Source of the DNA: a bacterium
GTDB taxonomy: Bacteria > UBA8248
DNA: 64,000 nucleotides
Direction of reading: 5' to 3'
Assembly (NCBI GenBank): GCA_965203325.1
Contig: OZ241875.1
Coordinates: 2,656,001-2,720,000, forward strand
This document shows positions 4,406 to 16,683 of the stretch, piece by piece. The position numbers and the translations under genes are program-made. Position 1 is the stretch's first letter. Each line of letters opens with the position of its first letter. The notes below the pieces were generated by a model. The model made no database searches, was not told where the DNA came from, and worked only from the letters and a program-made list of their open reading frames with translations.

Positions 4406-5422
4406 GTGATCATCGACCCCCATGCCCACATCGCTCCCGAGAGTTTCATCGAAGACGTACGCCAGGGCCGTTTCGGCGACGCCGTCACCATCGAAGCGGG
4501 CGACCCGTGGGAACAACTCGTCACGAAAAATACCGTGCTCGGCGAGGAGCGGATTCACAAGAACCCGCTGCCGAAAGAAACCTATGACGTCGAGATGCGC
4601 CTGAGCGACATGGCGAACAACCAGAACGTGGACATTCAGATACTCTCCGTCGTTCCGCCCATGACGCACTATGCACTCGACGCAGGGCTCAACAGGGAAC
4701 TCTCCGCGTCGCTCAACGACGCGCTCACCGCGCTCACGAAAGAACACCCCGACCGATTCCTGTGCATGGCGCAGATTCCGCTCCAGGACCCCGAAGCCGC
4801 GGCGGCCGAACTCGACCGCGCGGTGAAAAACGGCCACCTGGGCTGCCAGATCGGCTCGAACGTCGCGGGCAAGAACCTCGACGACCCCGCGCTCGACGCC
4901 GTCTGGGCCAAGGCGTGCGAGCACGACGTGCCGATCTTCATTCACCCGGTGGACGTCATGGGCGTCAACGACAGGCTCAAGGACTATTACCTGAGAAACT
5001 TCATCGGCAACCCGCTCGACACGACGATATCCATCGCCTGCCTCATCTTCGGCGGCGTGTTCGACCGCTTCCCGAACATCAAGTTCCTGGTCTCGCACGT
5101 GGGCGGCTTCGTTCCCTGGATCCGGGGCCGCTGGCAGCACGGCTACGGCGAGCGCAGGGAGCCCAAGGTGCACGGCGCGAAAGACCCCGAGCAGTATTTC
5201 GGCAAGATTTATTACGACACCATCATCCACAACGCGGATTCGTTCGAGTTCGCCGTGAAAACGCTCGGCGTGGACAGGATTCTCTACGGCACGGACTATC
5301 CCTTCGACATGGGCTATCTGGCCGGGGCGAAGGAGATTCCGGGGCTTTCGCGCTTCTCGGCGGAAGAGCAGGAACAGATGCTCTACGGGAACGTGAAAAA
5401 GCTCTACAAGCTGGACGTGTAA
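4406..5422 (+). CDS. Amidohydrolase 2 family protein (ACMSD-like decarboxylase/hydratase), copy 1
   Basis: IDPHAH, PIFIHP, SHVGG, YGTDYPFD motifs; AAGGAG RBS. Confidence 0.9.
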   Translation: MIIDPHAHIAPESFIEDVRQGRFGDAVTIEAGDPWEQLVTKNTVLGEERIHKNPLPKETYDVEMRLSDMANNQNVDIQILSVVPPMTHYALDAGLNRELSASLNDALTALTKEHPDRFLCMAQIPLQDPEAAAAELDRAVKNGHLGCQIGSNVAGKNLDDPALDAVWAKACEHDVPIFIHPVDVMGVNDRLKDYYLRNFIGNPLDTTISIACLIFGGVFDRFPNIKFLVSHVGGFVPWIRGRWQHGYGERREPKVHGAKDPEQYFGKIYYDTIIHNADSFEFAVKTLGVDRILYGTDYPFDMGYLAGAKEIPGLSRFSAEEQEQMLYGNVKKLYKLDV

Positions 5423-5506
5423 GACCTGAAGCTGAGAAAACAACCCGACTATCATGCGGCGAAGGGGCCCGGGAGGGCCTCCTCCCTTTATAAATAAGAG
5501 AAGAAG

Positions 5507-6523
5507 ATGACGGCGATCGATCCCCATACCCATATCTATCCCGGGCAGTTCATCGCGGACGTGCGTGCGGGCCGCTTCGGACGCACGGCGACGATAGAGG
5601 CCGACGAACACGGCGAGTGGCTCATTACGCGTGGAAAGGTGCTCGGGCGCGACTCGGAGCTCAGGAACAAGCTCACGCCCCTTTACTATGAGCTTGCGCC
5701 CCGCTTCGCCGACATGGAGCGGATGGGCGTTGCGCACCAGGTGCTCTCCATCGGCCCCGCCATGACGCTCTATACGCTCGAGGCGGAAGCGAACAGGGAA
5801 CTGGCCGCCTCGCTGAACGACGGCCTGACGGCGCTGGCGAGGGAGTATCCCGACAAGTTCTCCTGCATGGCCACCGTACCCCTCCAGGCGCCCGAAGCCG
5901 CGGCGGCGGAACTCGAACGGGCGTGTGCGAACGGCCACCTCGGCGTGATGATCGCCTCGAACGTGGCGGGGGAGAACCTGGACGATCCGGGTCTGGACGT
6001 CTTCTGGGCGAAGGCCCAGGCGCTTGATGTGCCCGTTTTCGTGCATCCCACGAACGTGCTGGGCGGGGACGACCGCTTAAAGGATTTCTACCTGAGGAAC
6101 TTCATCGGCAATCCGCTCGACACCACGGTCGCGGTGGCGTGCCTCATCTTCGGCGGCGTGATGGACAGGTTCCCGGGGCTTCGGTTCTATCTCTCCCACG
6201 TGGGCGGCTTCGTGCCCTGGATCAGAGGCCGCTGGCAGCACGGCTACGGCGAACGCAGGGAACCGAAGGTGCAGGGCGCGAAAGACCCCGAGCAGTATTT
6301 CGGCCGCTTCTATTACGACACCATCATCCACAACGCGGACTGCTTCGAGTTCGCCGCGAAGACGCTCGGAGCGGAGCGGATTCTCTACGGGACGGACTAT
6401 CCGGCGGACATGGGCTATCACCAGCCCGCGCGGGATATCCCGGGCCTGAGCCGCCTCCCGGAAGCGGAGCAGGAGATGATTCTCACGACCAACGCCAGGC
6501 GCGTCTACGGGCTTGCGATATAG
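5507..6523 (+). CDS. Amidohydrolase 2 family protein, copy 2
   Basis: IDPHTH, PVFVHP, SHVGG, YGTDYPAD motifs; same length as and paralogous to copy 1. Confidence 0.9.
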   Translation: MTAIDPHTHIYPGQFIADVRAGRFGRTATIEADEHGEWLITRGKVLGRDSELRNKLTPLYYELAPRFADMERMGVAHQVLSIGPAMTLYTLEAEANRELAASLNDGLTALAREYPDKFSCMATVPLQAPEAAAAELERACANGHLGVMIASNVAGENLDDPGLDVFWAKAQALDVPVFVHPTNVLGGDDRLKDFYLRNFIGNPLDTTVAVACLIFGGVMDRFPGLRFYLSHVGGFVPWIRGRWQHGYGERREPKVQGAKDPEQYFGRFYYDTIIHNADCFEFAAKTLGAERILYGTDYPADMGYHQPARDIPGLSRLPEAEQEMILTTNARRVYGLAI

Positions 6524-6606
6524 GGGCTGGACAAAGCGTCTTCCAGGTGTAAAATTCAATCAGGTATTCCAGTTTGAGCCGGTTCAACTGCAAAGGGGAA
6601 GTTCCG

Positions 6607-6894
6607 ATGGAGGAAACCACCTTCCGCGTGGGCGACAGGGTGCGCATCAAGGAGATGTACCCCGACGGCCACCACCGGACGACGTACTTCGTGAAGGGAA
6701 AGACGGGCGTCGTCAACCGCTATTTCGGCAAATACAAGAACCCCGAGAATCTCGCCTACGGCGGCGACGGCCTGCCGCTCCGGGAACTCTACTGGGTGGA
6801 GTTCGACATCAACGATCTCTGGGATCACGAGGCGGGGAAAAAGCAGGACAAACTCTATATCGAGATTTATGAGCATTGGCTGGAGCCGGTCTAG
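6607..6894 (+). CDS. Nitrile hydratase beta C-terminal (SH3-like) domain protein / thiocyanate hydrolase alpha-like
   Basis: FRVGDRVRI...GHHRT..FVKGKTG...LYWVEF...LW...IEIYEHWLEP pattern; only 95 aa. Confidence 0.85.
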   Translation: MEETTFRVGDRVRIKEMYPDGHHRTTYFVKGKTGVVNRYFGKYKNPENLAYGGDGLPLRELYWVEFDINDLWDHEAGKKQDKLYIEIYEHWLEPV

Positions 6895-6932
6895 GCGAAT
6901 CCACCGGCTCCCCTGTGAGCGAGGAGCAAACC

Positions 6933-7697
6933 ATGGCGCACTCACACGATCACCACAACGGCGGACATGTTCACCACCACGGCGACCATCCTCACACCTA
7001 CAGCCAGGACCCCTCGGCGCACAACGCGCGGATGCAGTCCGACGACGCCTACCGCGAAGGAGCCGTGGCCCAGGTCGAGCACGATCTGGACTACTACCAG
7101 GTGCGCATGATGGCGCTGATGAACGTCCTCCGCGAGAAGGGCCTTCTCACGACCGACGAGATGCGGCGCGCGGTGGAGGAGATCTACGGCCAGAGTCCGG
7201 CCATCGGTTCGCGCATCATCGCGCGCGCCTGGGTCGATGAGGGCTTCAAGGAAAGGCTCCTGGCGGACGCGGACGCCGCCTGCGGCGAGATGGGCGTCGA
7301 CACCACGGGCATCAACCGCGTGGTGGCCCTTGAGAATACCGACACGACCCGCTACATGGTGGTGTGCACGCTGTGTTCGTGCTACCCGAGGCAAATCCTC
7401 GGGCAGCCCCCCACCTGGTACAAGAGCTTCCCCTATCGCTCGAAAGCCGTGACGGACCCGAGGGGAACATTGAAGGATATGGGCTTCGAAGCGCCCGATG
7501 ACGTGGAACTCATCGTCATCGATTCGAACGCGGATTGCCGCTATCTCATCATCCCCCAGCGTCCGGCGGGAACCGAGGACTGGAGCGAGGCGCAGCTCTT
7601 CCAGCTCGTCACGCGCGATTCGATGATCGGCGTGGGCGACCCCCTGACACCCGAGCAGCTCGAGCAAGCCATACAGGCGTCGGGGCAGGCCGGCTGA
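6933..7697 (+). CDS. Co-type nitrile hydratase alpha / thiocyanate hydrolase gamma-like subunit
   Basis: VVCTLCSCYP metal-binding motif, ARAWVD, RPAGTEDW, VTRDSMIG; His-rich N-terminus; GAGGAG RBS. Confidence 0.92.
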   Translation: MAHSHDHHNGGHVHHHGDHPHTYSQDPSAHNARMQSDDAYREGAVAQVEHDLDYYQVRMMALMNVLREKGLLTTDEMRRAVEEIYGQSPAIGSRIIARAWVDEGFKERLLADADAACGEMGVDTTGINRVVALENTDTTRYMVVCTLCSCYPRQILGQPPTWYKSFPYRSKAVTDPRGTLKDMGFEAPDDVELIVIDSNADCRYLIIPQRPAGTEDWSEAQLFQLVTRDSMIGVGDPLTPEQLEQAIQASGQAG

Positions 7698-7718
7698 TCG
7701 CAGTCTCAATCTCTCCAC

Positions 7719-7751
7719 GCGGCGGGGGCGGAAGCTCCCGCCGCTTTTTTT
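7719..7751 (+). terminator. Rho-independent terminator
   Basis: GCGGCGGG...CCCGCCGC stem followed by T7, just after the hydratase gene. Confidence 0.8.
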
Positions 7752-7765
7752 CGGGATGAGAACGA

Positions 7766-9172
7766 ATGCCCTCGCCTCGCGTCATCGCGATCCAGTTCGA
7801 CGGTCTGCGCGCCGACGCCCTGAGTGAGGAGAGAACACCGAATCTCCTCGCCGCGGCGAAGCGGGGCGCGTGGTTTCAGAATCACCGCAGCACGTTTCCC
7901 ACATCGACGAGAGTCTGCGTATCGAGCCTCGCTACGGGCGTCTATCCTGAAAAGCACGGCCTTCCGGGCAATTCGCTCTTCTCGCGCGATTTGGGCGAAA
8001 CCATCACGACGGGCCGCCATGAGAATCTCGTAAACTGGCAGCGCGCCATGGGCGGGCGTCTGCTGTTGCGGGACACCTTTTTCGAGCGGGTGGGGGGCGG
8101 CGCGATCATCAGCGCGGCGTCGAGCGGCTCCGCCTGGCTCTGGAACGCAGGCCGCGCCGCGCACCTGATTCACCCCGTTGCGGAATACCCTGCCGGGGAG
8201 CGCGGGAGGATCAAGGAGGCGGGGGAAATCCCCCATGCCGGCGCGCCGGATCTTCCGCGCTGCGAATGGGCGCTCGACCTGGCGCTCGATTACGTGATCC
8301 CGAAACTCGCGCCCGCCGTGCTCATGGTTCACCTGAGCGAGCCGGACAACACGCAGCATCACGAGGGCGCCGCAGGCGCCGTGCATCGCCAGGCGCTCGA
8401 AGGTGTGGACAGGCTGTTCGGCGCGTTCCGGGAGAGGTTTCAGGCGGAGCACGATGACTGGAGGCAGACGAACCTTCTCCTGTTCTCCGACCACGGGGTC
8501 GTGGCGACGGCGGGCATGATCGACCTGGATGCGGAACTGGCAGACCTCCCCGGCCGCGGTAAGAGCTGGCAGGCGGCGCACAGCGAGGGGGCCGCGCTTT
8601 TCTACGCCGAATCGGAAAAGACGCTTATCGAACTCGCCGCGTTCTTGCGGACGAAAGAATGGGCGGGGCCATTGTTCTCGAAAGAGGGAGATGGCGTCGA
8701 GGGCGCGCTGCCGGGCACGATGTCTCTGGGGCTGGCGGGCTGCGGCGGAGCCCGCGCGCCCGATTTGCTCATGGGCTTTCAGTGGGGCGATGGTTTCTTG
8801 GGGGGCGAGAACCGCGCGGGCGCGCTCCCCGGCTGGGGATATTCATCCGTCAACAACAAGGGCGGCGGCGGAACGCACGGCTCGTGCAGTCCGTATGAGC
8901 TTCGCAACTTCCTGATTGGCGCAGGCCCCGCTTTTCCGGCGGGCGTGCGGGTGGACGCGCCGACGGGCAACATCGACCTGGCCCCCACCATCCTCTCCCT
9001 GATGGGGAAGGAGACCTCCGGCCTCGATGGAGAGTCGCTCACGAAAACGCCCCGGGCGAGGGGAGAAGAGCGGCTCTACCGTGTGGAATCGAAGGATGTC
9101 GCCCAGACGCTATCGCGGGCGGAGGCGGACGGGCGGTTTTATCTCAACTTCGCCAGGCTGGAGAGGGCCTAA
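7766..9172 (+). CDS. Alkaline phosphatase superfamily protein (nucleotide pyrophosphatase/phosphodiesterase type)
   Basis: FDGLR, FPTSTR (nucleophile Thr), EPDNTQH, SDHG, THGS, NIDLAPTI. Confidence 0.85.
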   Translation: MPSPRVIAIQFDGLRADALSEERTPNLLAAAKRGAWFQNHRSTFPTSTRVCVSSLATGVYPEKHGLPGNSLFSRDLGETITTGRHENLVNWQRAMGGRLLLRDTFFERVGGGAIISAASSGSAWLWNAGRAAHLIHPVAEYPAGERGRIKEAGEIPHAGAPDLPRCEWALDLALDYVIPKLAPAVLMVHLSEPDNTQHHEGAAGAVHRQALEGVDRLFGAFRERFQAEHDDWRQTNLLLFSDHGVVATAGMIDLDAELADLPGRGKSWQAAHSEGAALFYAESEKTLIELAAFLRTKEWAGPLFSKEGDGVEGALPGTMSLGLAGCGGARAPDLLMGFQWGDGFLGGENRAGALPGWGYSSVNNKGGGGTHGSCSPYELRNFLIGAGPAFPAGVRVDAPTGNIDLAPTILSLMGKETSGLDGESLTKTPRARGEERLYRVESKDVAQTLSRAEADGRFYLNFARLERA

Positions 9173-9216
9173 CCTTTTGCCGCCGGTGGGAAGGCGGCAC
9201 ACTCCCAAGCCTTCGC

Positions 9217-10122
9217 CTAGCACCCGGCGTCCGTATACGCGGCGCGTTCCTCGTCCTTGAAGTCGTCCAGCAGGTTGTGCCCGCCCTCTTGTCCCTGCCG
9301 GACGGCGAAGATGGGCGGCGGCACGTCGGGGCGCCATTTGGTGGTCTCGGGCGGTTCGGGCCACTCATAGGGCAGGTGCCGGTAGGCGTTGGGCGCGTCC
9401 GCTTCTTCGAGCAGCGCGGCCATGTCCTCGCAAATCCGGCGCTGGCCCGCGTAATCGCCCACGACGCCCAACTGCCGCCCGAAGGGATACTGCACGAAAA
9501 CGGCTCTCGGCACGCAGACGCGCTCGGTGGTCTCGGGCACGTTGGAGATGATGACGGTGGCGATTCCCGCCTTTTCGATCTCGCGCTGAAGCAGTCCGCC
9601 GGACCGGTTGCAGAGCGGTCAGACCGGATAGAGAAAGGCCGCGTCCACGCCTTCGGCCTTCATCTTCTCGATCATCAGGGGCGCGGTGCGCTTCACCAGC
9701 GGGTTGAAGTTCGGGATGTAGCCCATGATGGAATAGAGCGTATCGGCCAGCGCGCCGATTTTCCCCTCCCGCTCGAAATCGAGAAAGATGTCGACCGGCC
9801 AGGAGACGTTCCTGTCCTCGGCCATGAACGAGGTGTCGACGTGCAGGTGGGAATATTCCACGTTGCCCTGGCCCGCCGTCCTGGGGATCTCCCGGTGGGT
9901 GGGGTCGCCCCAGGTGCCCTCGCGGCGCTCCCGTTCGTAGTCGAAAGAAACGTCGTCCTTCATGAAGATGCCGGCCGTGGAGACGAGGGTGACCCTGCAC
10001 TCCGCGAGCGGTTTCGCCATCGGCGTCCACGGCGTTTTGGCCGGGTCGGCGTGGCGCTGCGCCAGGACGCGCTCGCGCGAGGTGGGGTGGAAATAGAATC
10101 CATCGACTCTTTCGATTGGCAT
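9217..10122 (-). CDS. PrdB/GrdB-like selenoprotein (glycine/sarcosine/betaine/proline reductase selenoprotein B family), 301 aa, Sec at codon 168
   Basis: ORFs 9619..10140 and 9217..9540 are in one frame separated by a single TGA (9621-9619): ...VDAAFLYPV-U-PLCNRSGGLLQREIEKAGIATV...VPRAVFVQYPFG. N-half has KPLAECRVTLVSTAG, GDPTHREIP, EDRNVSWPVD. GAGGA RBS before ATG 10122. Confidence 0.9.
9577..9621 (-). promoter_or_regulatory. Putative bacterial SECIS element
   Basis: After UGA: ccgcu-CUG-c-AA-c-CGGUCC-ggc-GGACUG-c-UU-CAG-c-gcg. Hand-folded hairpin with a G-initiated apical loop 18 nt downstream of the UGA. Confidence 0.7.
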
Positions 10123-10150
10123 TATGATCCTCGAATTCATGTTTCAAGAT

Positions 10151-11419
10151 TCAGGCGGGAGACGCTCCTCTCTTATCTCTTTTCACCCAGCCGAGCAACA
10201 CGGCGAAGAAGCCGCAGAGAAAGAACATGAGCGCGAAGGCCGACAAGCCCCACAGATAGGAGCCGTGCAGGTCGAACAATGCGCCCGTCGTCCATGGCCC
10301 CGCCGAGCCCCAGAGGGCGAAGCCCATCATCGCCACGCCGTTCACGCGCCCGAAGCCCGGGCCTTCGAAATAATCCGCGAGGATGGCCGAGCCGGTGGGC
10401 CGTATGAGGCCGAGCGCCAGACCGTTGGTTATCGTGCCGATGTAGAAGCGGAACTCGGGGTCTCCCTTCTCGTAGGTGGCGAGAACGAGGGCGGAGGCGA
10501 TTCCGAGCGCGTTGCCGATGAGGTAGGTCGGCACCCGTCCCAGCCGGTCCGAGACCGGGCTTACGAGGTTCGCCCCCACCTGGCAAAGCCCCCATATGGC
10601 GAACAGCACGCTCGCGGTCTGGAGCGAGAAGCCCTGGTCGGTGGCGTGGGGCACCAGATGCACGAGCATGCCCGCGAAGGCGTAGGCCATGGGCAGGAAC
10701 GAGCCCATGAAGAAGAAAAACGGCAGGTTGTACATGGAGACCGGCGGCCCGTCGGCGGATGGAGGCGCTGGTTCCGGCGCTCCTTCTTCCGGTAGGTTCT
10801 GGACGAAGGGCGCGTCGGCGATGGTGCCTTTCTCGGATGGGTGGTCCCTGTGAAAAATGATGCAGACGGGGAGCACGATGAGCAGCGTCACGCCCGCCAG
10901 CGCGAGATAGCTCATCCGCCAGCCCAAGGCCGCGATGAGGTAGGGCGTGGCGATGTTCAGGCAGAAGGCCCCTCCCTGGCAGGTGTTGGAAATGCCTAAG
11001 GCGAGCCCTCTTTTTTTCACGAACCAGTTCGAGAGCGTGGGCACCTGGGCGATCCACGTGCTCGCGGCGAAGCCCGCGCACAGGCCGATGTACATCAGGT
11101 AAAAATGCCAGAGCGAGGTGATCTGGCTCCCGATGAGCAGGGAGAGGCCGAACACCACGACCCCCGCCGACATCGACGCCCGGATGCTCCAGCGGTCGGA
11201 GAAGATGCCCGCCAGCGGCGAGATGATCGCCTGGGCCACCATCCCGATGGAAAAAGCCGCCGCCGTCGCGCCCCGGCTCCAGCCCAGCTCGCCCGAGATT
11301 TCCTTGAAGAAGGGCCCGATGGTGGCGCGGAAGGCGATGAGGGTGATCATGACGAGGAAGACCACGCCCAGGACCACCCAGCCGTACCAGAGGCGCGAAT
11401 CGTCCCGCATGGCGTCCAT
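10151..11419 (-). CDS. MFS transporter (OFA/MCT-like), copy 2
   Basis: WYGWVVL, WFVKKRGLALG, SDRLGR; many hydrophobic segments. Confidence 0.9.
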   Translation of the reverse strand: MDAMRDDSRLWYGWVVLGVVFLVMITLIAFRATIGPFFKEISGELGWSRGATAAAFSIGMVAQAIISPLAGIFSDRWSIRASMSAGVVVFGLSLLIGSQITSLWHFYLMYIGLCAGFAASTWIAQVPTLSNWFVKKRGLALGISNTCQGGAFCLNIATPYLIAALGWRMSYLALAGVTLLIVLPVCIIFHRDHPSEKGTIADAPFVQNLPEEGAPEPAPPSADGPPVSMYNLPFFFFMGSFLPMAYAFAGMLVHLVPHATDQGFSLQTASVLFAIWGLCQVGANLVSPVSDRLGRVPTYLIGNALGIASALVLATYEKGDPEFRFYIGTITNGLALGLIRPTGSAILADYFEGPGFGRVNGVAMMGFALWGSAGPWTTGALFDLHGSYLWGLSAFALMFFLCGFFAVLLGWVKRDKRGASPA

Positions 11420-11423
11420 GGCC

Positions 11424-12713
11424 CTAGGCGCGCTCTTCGCGCGGCATGCGCGTGAGGCTCACCACGAAAACCGCGCCCGTGACGAACATGCAGCCCACGA
11501 GGAGGAAACCCGCGTAGTAGTTACCGCTCGCATCGAAGAGCATGCCCGTCACGAGGGGGCCCAAAGCGCCCACGACCGAGAAGACCATCATCGCGCACCC
11601 GTTCACGAGGCCGAAGCCCCGCCCCGCGAAATGATCCGCCAGAAGGGAAGACGCCGTGGGCCGGACGAATCCCAGAGCGAAGCCCACCCCCATCGCGCCC
11701 GCGTATATCCGCCACCCGGCCGACGCTTGCGTGAAGGCGGCCAGGAGGTAGCACGCGGCCACCCCGCACACCACCCCCACCATGAAGGTGGGGAGCCTCC
11801 CGATGCGATCCGATACCGCGCTCAGCCCGTTTCCCGCGACGAGGGCCGCCCCGTAAAGGGCGAAGAGTGCTGCGCCCCCCGAGGGGGAGAAGCCCTGGTC
11901 CGTCGCGTGGGGGATCAGGTGCACCAGGACGGCGGTGAAGATGTAGGCGATGCTGCCGTAGATGCCGCCGAGCAGCATGAACCTGCGGGTGAAGAAAAAA
12001 GAGAATGAGGCGGTCTCTTTCTCCTTATCTAAAGGGATGATGACGGCGGCTCTGGCGCGGGCGCGGGAGAATTCCTCGGAAGTGAGAAAGGGCGCGTCGG
12101 GCGCGGTGCGCTTCTCTCTGGGGTGCTCGCGCAGCAGCGCCACGGCGAAGGGCAGCAGGAAAAGAAGCACGACCCCCGCCAGCGCGAGGTAGCTCGCCCG
12201 CCAGCCGAAGGCCGCGATGAGCAGGGGGGTGAAGATGTTCACGATGGGCGCGAAGCCCTGGGCGGCGTGCGAAAATCCCATCGCGAGCCCGCGTTTCAGA
12301 ACGAACCAGTTGGCGAGCAGTTGCACCTGGGGCAGGTTGGCCGTGAAGGCGAAGCCCAGCGAGAGCAGGAAATACATGGCGTAGAAATGCCAGAGCGCGC
12401 CGATGTAGGCGCCGATGATGAGCGCCGCGCCGTTCACGAGAATGCCCGCCCCGATGACCCAGCGCATGTTGAAGCGCTCGAGCACCCATCCCGCGAAGGG
12501 GGCCACCAGCCCCTGGCCGAGCATGCCCATGGTGAAGGCGGCGGCGGTCTGCGCGCGGTTCCAGCCGAACTCGCCCGATATCTCCTTGAAGAAGACGCCG
12601 ATGGAGTTCCTGATGCCGATGACCACCGTCATGACGATGAAGACGCTGAGGAGGATCACCCAGCCGTACCACAGGCGCAGTTCTTTTCGGGTCTGGTAGC
12701 GCGATGCGATCAA
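11424..12713 (-). CDS. MFS transporter (OFA/MCT-like), copy 1
   Basis: WYGWVIL, WFVLKRGLAMG, SDRIGR; probable TTG start at 12713 overlapping the NifU-like stop (TTGA). Confidence 0.85.
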   Translation of the reverse strand: MIASRYQTRKELRLWYGWVILLSVFIVMTVVIGIRNSIGVFFKEISGEFGWNRAQTAAAFTMGMLGQGLVAPFAGWVLERFNMRWVIGAGILVNGAALIIGAYIGALWHFYAMYFLLSLGFAFTANLPQVQLLANWFVLKRGLAMGFSHAAQGFAPIVNIFTPLLIAAFGWRASYLALAGVVLLFLLPFAVALLREHPREKRTAPDAPFLTSEEFSRARARAAVIIPLDKEKETASFSFFFTRRFMLLGGIYGSIAYIFTAVLVHLIPHATDQGFSPSGGAALFALYGAALVAGNGLSAVSDRIGRLPTFMVGVVCGVAACYLLAAFTQASAGWRIYAGAMGVGFALGFVRPTASSLLADHFAGRGFGLVNGCAMMVFSVVGALGPLVTGMLFDASGNYYAGFLLVGCMFVTGAVFVVSLTRMPREERA

Positions 12714-13048
12714 GTCGATGACTGGTCTTTGAGCGGATGCCCCACCCAAAACGAATAGCCGGAGTAGAATTTCTCCACCCGTTTGATGGCGTGATCGGAG
12801 ATGCGAACGCCCTCGACGGCGACGTCCGTGACGCCGGGGTGCTGCATGAGCTTCTGGCGCACGCCCAGGGCGTAGGTGACGCTCTTGAGCATGCAGCCCC
12901 GGCACGCGCCCTCGAAGCGAAGCGAGACTTCGCCGTTCTCGCTCACGCCCTCGAGCGTGATACCCCCGCCGTGAATCTTGAGAAGCGGGCGAATCTGCGT
13001 CTCGATGATGTCCTCGACGTCTGAGATTAAGGCTTCGTGCTCGTTCAT
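12710..13048 (-). CDS. NifU/NfuA C-terminal domain protein
   Basis: IRPLLKIHGGGI...FEGACRGC motif; ATGA overlap with the upstream amidohydrolase. Confidence 0.85.
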   Translation of the reverse strand: MNEHEALISDVEDIIETQIRPLLKIHGGGITLEGVSENGEVSLRFEGACRGCMLKSVTYALGVRQKLMQHPGVTDVAVEGVRISDHAIKRVEKFYSGYSFWVGHPLKDQSST

Positions 13049-14073
13049 CCCGCCGCTCCGTTCCAGAGTTCCCGTTTCTTCGCCTCCACGTCCACGCCGA
13101 AGATGCGCGCCTGGTTGAGTCCCAGGATGTTGCGCTTGTCCTCTTCCGTGATCTGCGGATAGCCGTAGTCGTCCTGCATGGATTCGGGGATCTCCATCTC
13201 CCATATCCACTCGATGACGGGCTTCGCGTTCCCCAGGAGCGCCATCTCCGAACCCCAGAGCACTCGCTCGGAGCCCACGTCGCGGAGCAGCCTGCCCATC
13301 CACTCGGTGAAAGTCCTCGGCGCGATCATCGGCGTGTGGCCGATGCCCGAGAGCACCAGGAACACGTTCTCGTAGCGGTTCGCCATCCAGACGACTTCCT
13401 CGAAATAGGGCACCGCCAGGTGGTGGACGCCGAAGAGGAGATCGGGAAAATCGAGCGCCGCGCCCTCGATGTCGAGCGGCGAGAGGTCGCGCAGCTTCGC
13501 CCGCGTGATGGGGTTTCCCTTGTGGAACTGGAACACCTCGACACCCAGCTCGCGTCCTTTCTCATAGAGGGGATAGGCGATTTCGGGGTCGTCGCACGCC
13601 CAGGATTTCCCGTCCACGTGGGCGTTGTAGATCTTGATGGACCGCGCCCCCCACTCCTTCACCTGGCGCTCCATCTCCTCGCACGCGGCGGCCACGCTCG
13701 GGTACATGGGGTCCACGGCCCCGCAGAACAGGCAGCGTTCGGGATAGGCCTGCGCGAAAGCGTACTGCGCCTTCACGGGCGCGAAGCCGTCCTTATAAAG
13801 ATCGAACAGGGGCACGGCCTGGGCCATCGCCATGTCGGTGCCCGAATCCTCGAAGACGAGGCGGCCCATGTCCTCGACGGTCCAGCGGCGCTTGAAGCCC
13901 TCCACCGGGTGCCAGTTCGCGTAGACGTCGGTGGGCGCGGTCCGCCTCCTGCCCAGCACCTTGCTCACGTGGTAGTGGCGGTCGTATTCGCTTTGCTCCG
14001 AGACGAGGTTCTCATCCGAGTAGTCGTACATGTGCACCACGTTGTCGAAGACGAATACGTCGCCGCGGATCAT
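13045..14073 (-). CDS. Amidohydrolase family (TIM-barrel metal-dependent) protein
   Basis: DNVVH, FHKG, VHH, RVLWGSE, ITEEDKRNILGLNQARIFG; AAGGAG RBS. Confidence 0.8.
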   Translation of the reverse strand: MIRGDVFVFDNVVHMYDYSDENLVSEQSEYDRHYHVSKVLGRRRTAPTDVYANWHPVEGFKRRWTVEDMGRLVFEDSGTDMAMAQAVPLFDLYKDGFAPVKAQYAFAQAYPERCLFCGAVDPMYPSVAAACEEMERQVKEWGARSIKIYNAHVDGKSWACDDPEIAYPLYEKGRELGVEVFQFHKGNPITRAKLRDLSPLDIEGAALDFPDLLFGVHHLAVPYFEEVVWMANRYENVFLVLSGIGHTPMIAPRTFTEWMGRLLRDVGSERVLWGSEMALLGNAKPVIEWIWEMEIPESMQDDYGYPQITEEDKRNILGLNQARIFGVDVEAKKRELWNGAAG

Positions 14074-14167
14074 GAGAGGAAACTCCTTCCGTGGGACAAG
14101 AATCACCACCGCCAGATTAGCACACGGCGCGCGGGCGTGTCAGATGTTGGAAGGATTTCAGGTTTCG

Positions 14168-15046
14168 CTAGTTGATGATGTTTGTTTTTATTCCCTGCGT
14201 TTTCCAATTTTCGAAAACATAATCCACGAATCCATCAACGGGTTTTGAATTGCATATCCGTGCGAGTTCGTTGCCTGAGCTTGTTAGTATTGCTTTGCCT
14301 GTTTCTATGCCGAATTTTTCACCTTTATTCTTTTCTGGCATTTCTACGGCTATTTTTTTGCCAAAATAATTTACATGAAAAGCTCTTTGGGAAAAAGTTA
14401 ATGTAAATCCAGCAGTAGAATTAAAACTAATGAGTCCTATGTCGTTGAGGTGAGAAAAAGCTTCGAATTCTACGTTTTGTTTAGTGTAAATTTCTGCATT
14501 ATGGTCATAAATTAACGGCACAGAACGATATCCAATTGTCATAATAAATGAACAAAAGGAAGTGAATAAACCTGCGTCTTTTTTATCGAGAGAACCTAAC
14601 AAATTCACCGTCCTTTTGGTGTAGGTTCCAGGCTCGTTTGCTTCTCCCGCCAGAATTTTCGACCAAAGTTGTTGCATATCGTCATCCGAGATGATTCGAC
14701 ATTTATCAAAGAAATTCACGATCCAATCATCTTCTATTTCTTCTGGTTTTAAAGAATCCCCTGCCACACGCGGAATAGCTTTTTCTATGATGGATTCCAT
14801 GTTTTCCTGTTTTTTGGCTTCTTCAGAAATGAAGCGTAGTGCAGCTCGTTGTTGTAATTCTTTGTTTTTTAATTGCCCTTGCGTCTTGATAAGGTCCGCA
14901 TCGGCTTCTGCTTGAGCGACATTTCTAATGCGGCGAGGTTCATACAAAATGCCAGTTAGATCAAAAATTCTATCTATGAGTCGAGTGAGGGGCTTAGAAA
15001 GACCGAGAGCATCTTCAATTTTAATAAGGGATTTATCATCAGACAT
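14168..15046 (-). CDS. DUF2806-domain protein in an AT-rich segment
   Basis: KKQENMESI, DDWIVNFFDKCRIISDDDMQQLWSKILAGE...PGTYT pattern; visibly lower GC than its neighbours. Confidence 0.75.
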   Translation of the reverse strand: MSDDKSLIKIEDALGLSKPLTRLIDRIFDLTGILYEPRRIRNVAQAEADADLIKTQGQLKNKELQQRAALRFISEEAKKQENMESIIEKAIPRVAGDSLKPEEIEDDWIVNFFDKCRIISDDDMQQLWSKILAGEANEPGTYTKRTVNLLGSLDKKDAGLFTSFCSFIMTIGYRSVPLIYDHNAEIYTKQNVEFEAFSHLNDIGLISFNSTAGFTLTFSQRAFHVNYFGKKIAVEMPEKNKGEKFGIETGKAILTSSGNELARICNSKPVDGFVDYVFENWKTQGIKTNIIN

Positions 15047-15236
15047 ATCGAAACACCTTCCCTAGTATTCGAGTTGGGCTATCGGAGCATAGTATCTGGA
15101 GAAATTTTTTTCAAAAGTGAACGCTAGGAAATTGCCCTAACCTACCTAGAGTTCCCGTCGCCGTTGGACTTGGGCTTTATGTGCGCGTAGAAAAGGCTCT
15201 GGTTTTTCACGCAGCCAGGGAATCGAGGAGCATGGA

Positions 15237-16106
15237 ATGGACTGGGTGACGCTCGCCGTCATAGCGGCCCTCGCGCAGGTGCTCAGAAACGCGGCGATGA
15301 AATCCATCGGCCACAAGCTCGATGAGTACATCAACGTGCTGGGGCGGTTCGCGTTCCTGCTGCCCTTCGCGGCCGCCGCGGTGTGGATGAGGGGCGTGCC
15401 CGAGATACAGCCCGGCTTCTGGTGGTATTGCGTCCTCTTCGGCTTCCTGCAGACCTCGGCCACGCTCTCGCTCTCGAAGGCGCTCCTCTACGGCTCGATG
15501 GGCGTGGTGACCTCGCTGTGGAAGCTCGCGACCATCTGGCTGGTGGTGCTCGCTTTCATCACGCTGGGCGAGGCGCCCTCGGCCTGGGGGCTTCTGGGCA
15601 TTTTCGTCACCCTGGCGGGTGTCTACGGGCTGAACGTCTCGCGCGCGCGGATCGGCTGGTTCGAGCCCGTGCGCGCCATATTCACCGACAAGGGGATGCG
15701 CTACACCGTGCTCGCCTCGCTGCTCTACGCGCCCTCGGTGATCACCTTTAAGCAGGCGGCGGTGCTCTCGGACGCGACTTTCGGGACGTTCATGACCTAT
15801 GCGGCGGCGTCGATCGTCGTTTTGCCGCTCACCCTGTGGAAATCCGCCGAACACTTCAAGGACGCCCCCAGACTCTGGAAGGGCTTCGTCTCCCTGGGGC
15901 TGTTCGCCTTCATCACGAGCCTCGCCCAGGCGGAGGCCTACCGGCTCACGCTCACTTCTTATGTGGAGTCGGTGAAGCAGGTCGAGATTCTCCTGGCCAT
16001 CGGGATCGGCTACGTCTTCTTCAGGGAGCGCGACCGCGTGCGCGAAACGCTCCTGGGCGGCGTGGTGATCCTGGCGGGAATCGTTCTCCTGATCCTGGCG
16101 GGGTGA
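15237..16106 (+). CDS. DMT/EamA family transporter
   Basis: About 10 hydrophobic segments in two repeats; TLGE and FFRE motifs; YVESVKQ. Confidence 0.85.
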   Translation: MDWVTLAVIAALAQVLRNAAMKSIGHKLDEYINVLGRFAFLLPFAAAAVWMRGVPEIQPGFWWYCVLFGFLQTSATLSLSKALLYGSMGVVTSLWKLATIWLVVLAFITLGEAPSAWGLLGIFVTLAGVYGLNVSRARIGWFEPVRAIFTDKGMRYTVLASLLYAPSVITFKQAAVLSDATFGTFMTYAAASIVVLPLTLWKSAEHFKDAPRLWKGFVSLGLFAFITSLAQAEAYRLTLTSYVESVKQVEILLAIGIGYVFFRERDRVRETLLGGVVILAGIVLLILAG

Positions 16107-16134: not shown

Positions 16135-16405
16135 CCGCAGGGGTCAGACATATATGTCTGACTATGTGTCCGCCCTGCCCCCGTGGTTGTTCCTGCGATG
16201 AACAATTCGATGATCGGGATTCCTTCCTCGCCCTGAAAGGACAGCCCCTCCTCGGGGCTGTCCCGCCCCCCCTACCCCCCCTTGTCAGGGGTCAAACGCG
16301 AGTGATGAACGAGCGTTTGCATGAGCCATTGACGAGAAACACATCGTCTTGCAAAACCTCCCTCTTCGGTCGGTTTTGACCCCTGACAAGGGGGGTAGGG
16401 GGGGG
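16135..16405. repeat. REP/MITE-like repeat cluster left of the surface lipoprotein
   Basis: Palindromic GTCAGACATATATGTCTGAC unit (16135-16162) and an inverted pair of CCCCCTACCCCCCCTTGTCAGGGGTCAAA (16266-16296 / 16375-16405). Confidence 0.8.
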
Positions 16406-16683
16406 TGCTTTTCCAGTCGAGAGAGGCGGTTCTTCTACCCCCTGAAAAGGGTGCTTTCAAGACGAAGGCGGGGAATTCCCGGAAAAAAAGCCGTTCTGGG
16501 GCATAGACCCGGCGAAACGTCGGGTTTCTGGGGTCCGATAATTGCTGTTATCGGCCCCCAGAAGCCCCGTTTTGCGCCGAACAACCCGATTCGGGCCGCA
16601 TTTGGGCCGCAAATGAGCGAAAAATGAGCGAAAAAAGGCGCAAAACGGCGCCCGAAACCCCTCCGGGGACCCCGGAATTGCGC

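Follow-up and report, generated by a model that had tools for sequence, protein, structure and literature searches.

Does a run of five tightly packed genes that ends in an orphan selenoprotein gene encode one dedicated pathway, or is it a composite of units with separate histories? The question is raised by positions 9217-14073 of the stretch of DNA analyzed here (hereafter the window; 64,000 nucleotides (nt) of contig OZ241875.1, from a Nitrospinota genome), where five co-directional genes of the minus strand follow one another in the order amidohydrolase, NifU, MFS1, MFS2 (two transporters of the major facilitator superfamily, MFS) and selenoprotein. The original prediction, made from the sequence of the window, saw in them a single new pathway of reductive cleavage or detoxification, with the NifU-type protein as an iron-sulfur (Fe-S) carrier or reductant serving the selenoprotein. 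Our results make us lean instead towards a composite locus, in which a conserved amidohydrolase-Nfu pair is accompanied by a passenger orphan selenoprotein, rather than one pathway.

The genes of the cluster and the elements within it are the following (window positions):

13045..14073, minus strand: Amidohydro_2 (ACMSD-type TIM-barrel) enzyme, 342 amino acids (aa); PF04909 at 3.5e-28, 99.6 bits against a cut-off of 26.4
12710..13048, minus strand: Nfu-type NifU C-terminal-domain protein, 112 aa; PF01106 at 2.3e-16, motif G-A-C-R-G-C
11424..12713, minus strand: MFS transporter 1 (MFS1), 429 aa, TTG start; PF07690 at 2.2e-39
10151..11419, minus strand: MFS transporter 2 (MFS2), 422 aa; PF07690 at 3.5e-43
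9217..10122, minus strand: PrdB/GrdB-like selenoprotein, 301 aa with the ATG at 10122 as start (307 aa with that at 10140); PF07355
9619..9621, minus strand: in-frame TGA, the selenocysteine (Sec) codon (U174 counted from 10140), in the translation that reads TGA as U
9592..9606, minus strand: candidate selenocysteine insertion sequence (SECIS) core, the 6-bp hairpin CGGUCC-GGC-GGACUG, lying 16-30 nt past the UGA's U
10128..10132, minus strand: GAGGA, ribosome-binding-like by sequence reading, 5 nt ahead of the ATG at 10122

Direct reading agreed with the original prediction on the packing of the five genes. The stop of the amidohydrolase gene and the start of the NifU gene overlap in ATGA (13048-13045), and the NifU stop overlaps the TTG start of MFS1 in TTGA (12713-12710). 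A 4-nt gap (11420-11423) separates the two MFS genes, and the gap between MFS2 and the selenoprotein gene measures 28 nt with the ATG at 10122 or 10 nt with the ATG at 10140; the former start is preferred on account of the GAGGA ahead of it and of the N-termini of homologues. Also as predicted, no PrdA/GrdE, GrdA or thioredoxin family was present among the 52 window open reading frames (ORFs) scanned against Pfam, a set drawn from the 59 picked ORFs plus the NifU and DUF2806 ORFs, with short low-scoring ORFs lying outside the scan. An Rfam scan of 9000-14300, with E up to 1, matched nothing. A scan of 8900-15300 for promoters and terminators gave one promoter-like and six terminator-like sites, with 1.6 and 6.5 expected from shuffled sequences; at this level, no richer than the shuffles, the gap between MFS2 and the selenoprotein gene contained no terminator-like site on the minus strand and had no promoter-like site near it. 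Among public sequencing runs, those listed as containing 9217-14109 were six of DNA type, from three studies, and none of RNA.

The amidohydrolase and the Nfu-type protein form a conserved unit

Using an alignment of the amidohydrolase, we found 80 metagenome loci, 75 of which have room downstream to judge the next gene. A NifU-like gene lies directly downstream of the amidohydrolase gene in 72 of these 75 loci (the exceptions are L044, L057 and L098). The two genes share a 4-nt start/stop overlap in 37 of the 72, and the CxxC motif is kept in all 72 NifU-like partners, which comprise 63 distinct sequences. The same arrangement was found on plasmids: among the best plasmid matches, from Rhizobiaceae and about 40% identical, a NifU gene adjoins the amidohydrolase gene in six out of six (one of them annotated as "NifU family protein"), and a selenoprotein gene in none. 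Across the 80 metagenome loci, the selenoprotein occurs in only two, both relatives at 97% identity. Since the NifU-like gene follows the amidohydrolase gene so regularly and the selenoprotein gene is so rarely found with it, NifU belongs to the amidohydrolase and not to the selenoprotein, and the role of selenoprotein reductant that had been proposed for it is not supported. We conclude that the amidohydrolase and the Nfu-type CxxC protein are the conserved unit of this locus.

The rest of the neighbourhood is variable. The type of MFS transporter seen in the window is present in only six of the 80 loci and accompanies the pair in Nitrospinota-like loci only. Elsewhere the pair neighbours genes for FAA hydrolases, RidA, SDR proteins, amidases, HpcH aldolases, other MFS types and GntR/IclR regulators. 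Homologues of the amidohydrolase with 50-65% identity were found in Mycobacterium, Bradyrhizobium, Paraburkholderia and Reyranella. Among the titles listed by a literature search on NifU together with amidohydrolases, none was pertinent. Structure prediction of an amidohydrolase-NifU complex gave scores of 0.08 and 0.03 (mark: 0.32), a result that counts neither way.

Two further observations concern the amidohydrolase family. This genome has a second amidohydrolase gene (C1:792779-793867), which is followed after about 120 nt by a 383-aa ORF and belongs to a paralogue group present in most genomes of the genus. At L018:3835-6249, the amidohydrolase and NifU genes are split by a low-GC island, which encodes a fusion of an N6/N4 DNA methylase with HNH and has a further gene of unknown function.

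The last gene encodes a selenoprotein

The claim that the last gene of the cluster encodes a selenoprotein was well founded: it is a genuine one. The motif at the in-frame TGA is U174-P-L-C177, that is, UxxC (numbering from 10140), and the TGA followed by P-[LIV]-C is kept in all 32 aligned related sequences. These comprise the window sequence, the paralogue L002 and 30 genome loci for which the frame was read; locus L035 was found by the motif only. Of 1342 family representatives (E up to 0.001), the best 150 include 42 that stop just before the Sec site, which is expected where gene callers stop at UGA, and 92 that run through it, 49 of them with Cys-x-x-Cys at the site. The genome encodes tRNA-Sec as well as selB (392.8 bits, cut-off 242) and selA (571.4 bits, cut-off 268).

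The hairpin downstream of the UGA forms in 31 of the 32 sequences and shows no covariation. Its codons CGG, UCC and CUG (Arg, Ser and Leu) are invariant, whereas the conserved Pro, Leu, Arg and Gly residues nearby use three to five codons. This invariance at synonymous positions suggests a SECIS, for which the hairpin is a candidate. The fold downstream of the UGA in the single sequence was no better than shuffles (z = -0.71).

The protein matches PF07355 with 37.3 bits (cut-off 22), over profile positions 216-344 of 347 only, which correspond to its C-terminal third; the GrdB-like gene of the grd locus of the same genome reaches 415 bits. On the PrdB model TIGR04483 it scores 124.7 bits, under the cut-off of 300, with profile positions 18-234 of 238 aligned, and on the selenoprotein B model TIGR01918 54.4 bits, under the cut-off of 65.45. 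Its structural model (pLDDT 84.8) had no match in the PDB by Foldseek with E up to 0.001. A wide search with VIA-align reached a Z of 8.6 at best, against Rossmann folds of the LacI and SDR types; the tool rates such values as common. No solved PrdB or GrdB structure was retrieved by sequence search.

Some relatives show departures at the selenoprotein gene. In one of them (L031:6975-8894) a PrdB-like selenoprotein gene is present in two tandem copies. In L032, L033 and L035, single-base deletions break the selenoprotein frame (alignment columns 486, 580 and 598), with the downstream sequence still conserved; L033 and L035 share one of these deletions. The assemblies look long-read, and assembly error and early decay are both possible.

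Linkage of the selenoprotein to the cluster is confined to one genus

Because alignment A1 was too divergent, we searched for selenoprotein loci with the single protein as query, which gave 31 genome loci. Twenty-one of these (84-95% identity) are syntenic with the cluster. They also share the unrelated flanking genes, namely EamA, a phosphodiesterase and the alpha subunit of nitrile hydratase (NHase), so that synteny within the genus does not discriminate. None of the four partner genes was present at the other 10 loci (62-78% identity). The expectation that the selenoprotein gene is conserved together with these neighbours thus failed outside the genus: orthologues at 84% identity or above are restricted to genus g1, and the selenoprotein is linked to the cluster within this one genus only.

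Genomes of the wider phylum give the same picture. PrdB-like genes are found in 46 of 51 genomes, in one to seven copies each, and the amidohydrolase in 28 of 51. In the sister genus g8, all four genomes have the amidohydrolase; two of them have no PrdB-like gene, and the other two carry one on another contig. Loci L041-L043 have EamA, then amidohydrolase-NifU-MFS, then NHase-alpha, with neither selenoprotein nor phosphodiesterase gene; their amidohydrolase is 75% identical to that of the window (GC content 0.36, measured for L041). Even among congeners the linkage may be interrupted, as L032 and L035 have genes for a glyoxalase, a polysaccharide deacetylase and a CMD protein, all on the opposite strand, between MFS2 and the selenoprotein gene.

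The selenoprotein gene is one of three paralogues in the genome, each in a different context. The neighbours of the paralogues, in this genome and its relatives, include cyclase with creatininase, SDR with ADH, DinB/MDMPI-SCP2, Amidohydro_1, and DoxX with CDO (cysteine dioxygenase).

The short selenoprotein does not depend on the Grd machinery

By the terms of the original prediction, a canonical set of prdA/grd partners elsewhere in the genome would count against it. Such a set exists, as genes for GrdC-beta, GrdA (with UGA), a GrdE/GrdG-like protein and a GrdB/GrdF-like protein (with UGA) are found at C1:522900-527225, 2.1 Mb away. The set proved irrelevant, however, to the short selenoprotein. 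GrdA is present in 35 of the 51 genomes of the phylum, and PrdB-like genes in 46. In five relatives that are 98-100% complete (G023, G025, G033, G034 and G039), PrdB-like genes are present while GrdA and the GrdE/PrdA family are both missing, and four of them (all but G039) keep the selenoprotein orthologue beside the amidohydrolase. From these five near-complete genomes we infer that the short protein is independent of the Grd machinery and is a true orphan. In the genome studied here, PF09338 matches the GrdE-like gene of the grd locus only. The FarE model NF053623 likewise matches that distant gene only, scoring 140 bits where the cut-off is 675.

The grd locus itself (C1:516077-527225 with its surroundings) adjoins genes for a dimethylglycine-dehydrogenase-like FAD/GcvT fusion, a DmdA-like protein and an MmgE/PrpD protein.

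Properties of the amidohydrolase, the Nfu-type protein and the transporters

An HxH motif at the end of strand 1 defines the Amidohydro_2 family. In the window enzyme the strand-1 motif is D10-N11-V12-V13-H14. Across the 20 homologues of alignment A2, D10, N11 and H14 are invariant (20 of 20); position 12 varies between Val and Ala, and position 13 between Val and Ile. The atypical NxxH that had been noted in place of HxH is therefore a true feature of these enzymes, with the first His absent and the second (H14) kept. Also invariant in this alignment are C117, H152, C160-D161-D162, H184, H217-H218 and E276. In the structural model of the enzyme (pLDDT 92), H184, H217-H218 and E276 lie at strand ends, and these are the putative remaining metal ligands. 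Foldseek matched the model to gamma-resorcylate and LigW decarboxylases (E about 1e-11), and the best TM-score was to BB4693 (PDB 3irs; 0.67/0.80), for which a profile search gave 5.8e-11.

The small partner protein was rightly described as NifU-type with a CxxC motif. It matches PF01106 with 60.1 bits (cut-off 27), and all 22 sequences compared keep C49 and C52. On the NfuA model TIGR03341 it reaches 43.5 bits (cut-off 269.35), over profile positions 102-169 of 190 only.

MFS1 and MFS2 are 46% identical and, judging from their sequences, are likely a tandem duplicate. MFS1 is missing or fragmented in three of the 21 syntenic relatives (L018 and L021 have a single MFS gene, L019 has fragments). 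MFS2 is the copy retained in relatives with one MFS, and the single transporter of L041-L043 is 48-50% identical to MFS2 and 40-42% to MFS1. Both belong to the general MFS_1 family; models for lactate, monocarboxylate and oxalate-formate transporters (including TIGR00890, TIGR00892 and NF049980) matched partially and all under cut-off, the best specific match being to SfMCT (106.3 bits, cut-off 320).

Interpretation of the locus

In the composite reading that we favour, the core of the locus would be a translationally coupled pair, made of an ACMSD-type Amidohydro_2 enzyme without the first strand-1 His and a small Nfu-type CxxC protein, which travels together across phyla in neighbourhoods of organic-acid catabolism. 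The pair may constitute an enzyme of two subunits that acts as a decarboxylase, a hydratase or a lactonase-like enzyme. In it, Nfu would probably bring iron or an Fe-S centre to the barrel subunit or hold it there, with the invariant C117 and C160 as candidate ligands. In Nitrospinota, the pair would have gained an oxalate-formate/monocarboxylate-like MFS transporter, duplicated in this genus, that most likely imports the acid substrate. The selenoprotein, in turn, may act as a stand-alone UxxC selenol/thiol oxidoreductase whose substrate is not specific to the cluster. Each of its paralogues adjoins another small cluster of catabolic or redox genes. It is nevertheless probably co-transcribed with the cluster here, considering the 28-nt gap, its own GAGGA and the lack of a terminator-like site in that gap.

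Several observations weigh against this composite reading. In 22 of the 23 genomes of genus g1, the selenoprotein orthologue and the amidohydrolase gene lie 1.6-5.8 kb apart on one contig, and 20 of those 22 have no intervening opposite-strand genes. The gap ahead of the selenoprotein gene is too short for an intergenic promoter. Furthermore, no NifU gene adjoins this genome's other amidohydrolase gene, a paralogue at 68% identity, so the pairing of amidohydrolase and NifU is not absolute. Finally, the fluoroacetate reductase operon farACEB of Cloacibacillus porcorum, in the available account, also joins an oxalate-formate-type MFS transporter and an Fe-S protein to a selenoprotein-B homologue (PMC10838667). 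A functional recruitment of the selenoprotein specific to this genus may still have taken place.

The farACEB precedent also favours the reading of all five genes as one dedicated pathway, in which the selenoprotein would reductively cleave an imported alpha-substituted carboxylate, the NifU CxxC protein would serve as reductant or Fe-S donor, and the amidohydrolase would act on the product or the precursor. The tight co-directional packing, the gene order that 22 of the genus's 23 genomes retain and the fact that the selenoprotein requires neither GrdA nor GrdE fit this pathway well. It is hard to reconcile, though, with the 72 of 75 loci where NifU adjoins the amidohydrolase, against two of 80 with the selenoprotein, with the amidohydrolase-NifU-MFS clusters in the two g8 genomes that lack any PrdB-like gene, and with the three opposite-strand genes that intervene in L032 and L035. 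Moreover, the synteny within the genus covers unrelated flanking genes too, the selenoprotein paralogues lie in unrelated contexts, and there is no pyruvoyl-type partner such as the FarE of farACEB. We thus regard a single pathway as unlikely. What stands of the proposal of a different, non-Stickland role is that the selenoprotein is not a Stickland PrdB or GrdB, in view of its scores below the cut-offs and of the relatives without GrdA and GrdE/PrdA; the five-gene pathway is unsupported. A variant that we judge a little less probable still would have the selenoprotein recruited, in this one genus, to an acid-uptake operon for a pyruvoyl-independent, FarB-like reductive C-X cleavage of an imported or newly formed alpha-substituted carboxylate, while the Amidohydro_2-Nfu pair would separately represent a new type of two-subunit enzyme whose metal site is completed by Nfu.

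At the other extreme, the selenoprotein gene could be an independent transcription unit, unrelated to the cluster and with its promoter inside the 3' end of MFS2. Its isolated position behind three opposite-strand genes in L032 and L035, the many contexts of its paralogues and its own GAGGA site would agree with this, and the 28-nt gap with no terminator-like or promoter-like site nearby speaks against it, although a scan at the level of shuffles carries little weight. Among the alternatives to a composite, co-transcribed locus, we give this one the most credence, while still doubting it. Very improbable, by comparison, is that the short PrdB-like protein serves as an alternative, substrate-specific "protein B" feeding the distant GrdA/GrdC machinery. 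The genome does contain the required grd genes, and several protein B complexes in Synergistota are said, in the part of the source available, to share one reductase (PMC10838667). Four relatives, however, keep the orthologue beside the amidohydrolase without GrdA or GrdE/PrdA, G039 has a PrdB-like gene without either, and GrdA is found in fewer genomes of the phylum than the PrdB-like genes are. The canonical Grd locus was also considered as the partner of the selenoprotein and rejected, being largely refuted by the genomes without GrdA and GrdE.

The more solid result of this analysis is the amidohydrolase-Nfu pair, whose conservation and translational coupling extend from plasmids of Rhizobiaceae to Nitrospinota. 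If Nfu indeed completes the metal site, the pair would represent a new cofactor arrangement in a well-studied superfamily. As for the selenoprotein, the "marine PrdB" proteins have been counted among the commonest selenoproteins of the ocean since 2005, with neither a known partner nor a known substrate. The PrdB-like genes need no GrdA, GrdE or PrdA, reach up to seven copies per genome and have varied catabolic neighbours, a pattern that speaks for a general redox helper and against a reductase subunit. If, on the other hand, the selenoprotein were recruited to an acid-uptake operon, one of the most abundant selenoprotein families of the surface ocean would gain its first link to a function.

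Other features of the window

Between the EamA gene and the amidohydrolase gene, the window carries a 1.0-kb low-GC insert (14145-15157; GC content of the surrounding 2 kb 0.50, against 0.64 in the neighbouring sequence). A DUF2806 gene on the minus strand (14168-15046), which has a promoter-like site, lies within it; the insert is absent from L026, L005 and L006. On the other side, a convergent cluster on the plus strand (4406-9172) encodes two Amidohydro_2 proteins with the classical HxH, a C-terminal fragment of NHase beta, NHase alpha with a His-rich N-terminus, and the phosphodiesterase. The NHase and Amidohydro_2 part of it still faces the amidohydrolase-NifU-MFS cluster in L041, a relative with a GC content of 0.36, where NHase-beta-C and Amidohydro_2 lie beyond NHase-alpha. 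The translations of ORFs at 16272-16627 of the window and at C1:2495378 of the same genome are nearly identical over a stretch (…LTPDKGGRGG…), which points to a dispersed repeat.

Comparison with known systems

The selenoprotein resembles the PrdB of Clostridium sticklandii and C. difficile (TIGR04483) in its homology over profile positions 18-234 of 238 and in having Sec in UxxC. It differs in being extended by about 35 residues at the N-terminus and about 45 at the C-terminus and by the lack of a PrdA proprotein in the window, the PrdA family being wholly absent from five relatives. It is closer to the environmental selenoproteins catalogued since 2005 as "proline reductase PrdB, pfam07355, UxxC", with 42 genes in the Sargasso Sea and, in the Global Ocean Sampling (GOS) data, 235 selenoproteins and 110 Cys homologues (PMC1088965, PMC2398784); UxxC is given as the motif of the PrdB family (PMC2398784). 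The portions of these two surveys available give neither partners nor function for the family (PMC1088965, PMC2398784), and a literature search for PrdB-like selenoproteins under that name found nothing. As far as the family is described there, it shares with the window protein the PF07355 match, Sec in UxxC, a PrdB-like length, Cys homologues at the site and its occurrence, as here, in non-fermenting marine bacteria. We found no feature to distinguish the two, and the window copy adds its genus-specific context. The selenoprotein is thus a new member of this known, unexplained and partner-less "marine PrdB" UxxC family.

The farACEB operon, for which a non-Stickland reductive cleavage has been proposed, shares the combination of transporter, Fe-S protein and selenoprotein-B homologue. 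In the available description, it also encodes FarE, which is GrdE-like, and FarB, a GrdB-like protein of full length, and it depends on GrdA, GrdC and GrdD. No gene for any of these is linked to the cluster here. The Fe-S protein of farACEB is a radical SAM enzyme, whereas that of the window is an Nfu (PMC10838667). In line with the lack of a FarE/GrdE-like subunit beside the selenoprotein, no PF09338 match was found in the window.

The Nfu-type protein has, like the Nfu/NfuA Fe-S carriers (PF01106, TIGR03341), a NifU C-terminal domain with G-A-C-x-G-C. Unlike NfuA, it is a single-domain protein, and its gene is coupled to that of a catabolic enzyme and not to Fe-S assembly genes.

Finally, the amidohydrolase shares the TIM-barrel fold of the ACMSD-type enzymes (gamma-resorcylate decarboxylase 2dvt, LigW 4l6d, LigJ, LigY and BB4693 3irs; TM-score 0.55-0.67) and keeps the strand-5 and strand-6 histidines. 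The usual strand-8 acid of these enzymes is Asp, and in the window enzyme it is Glu, in G-S-E. It further departs from them in having Val or Ala for the first His of HxH, two invariant Cys residues and an Nfu-like neighbour.

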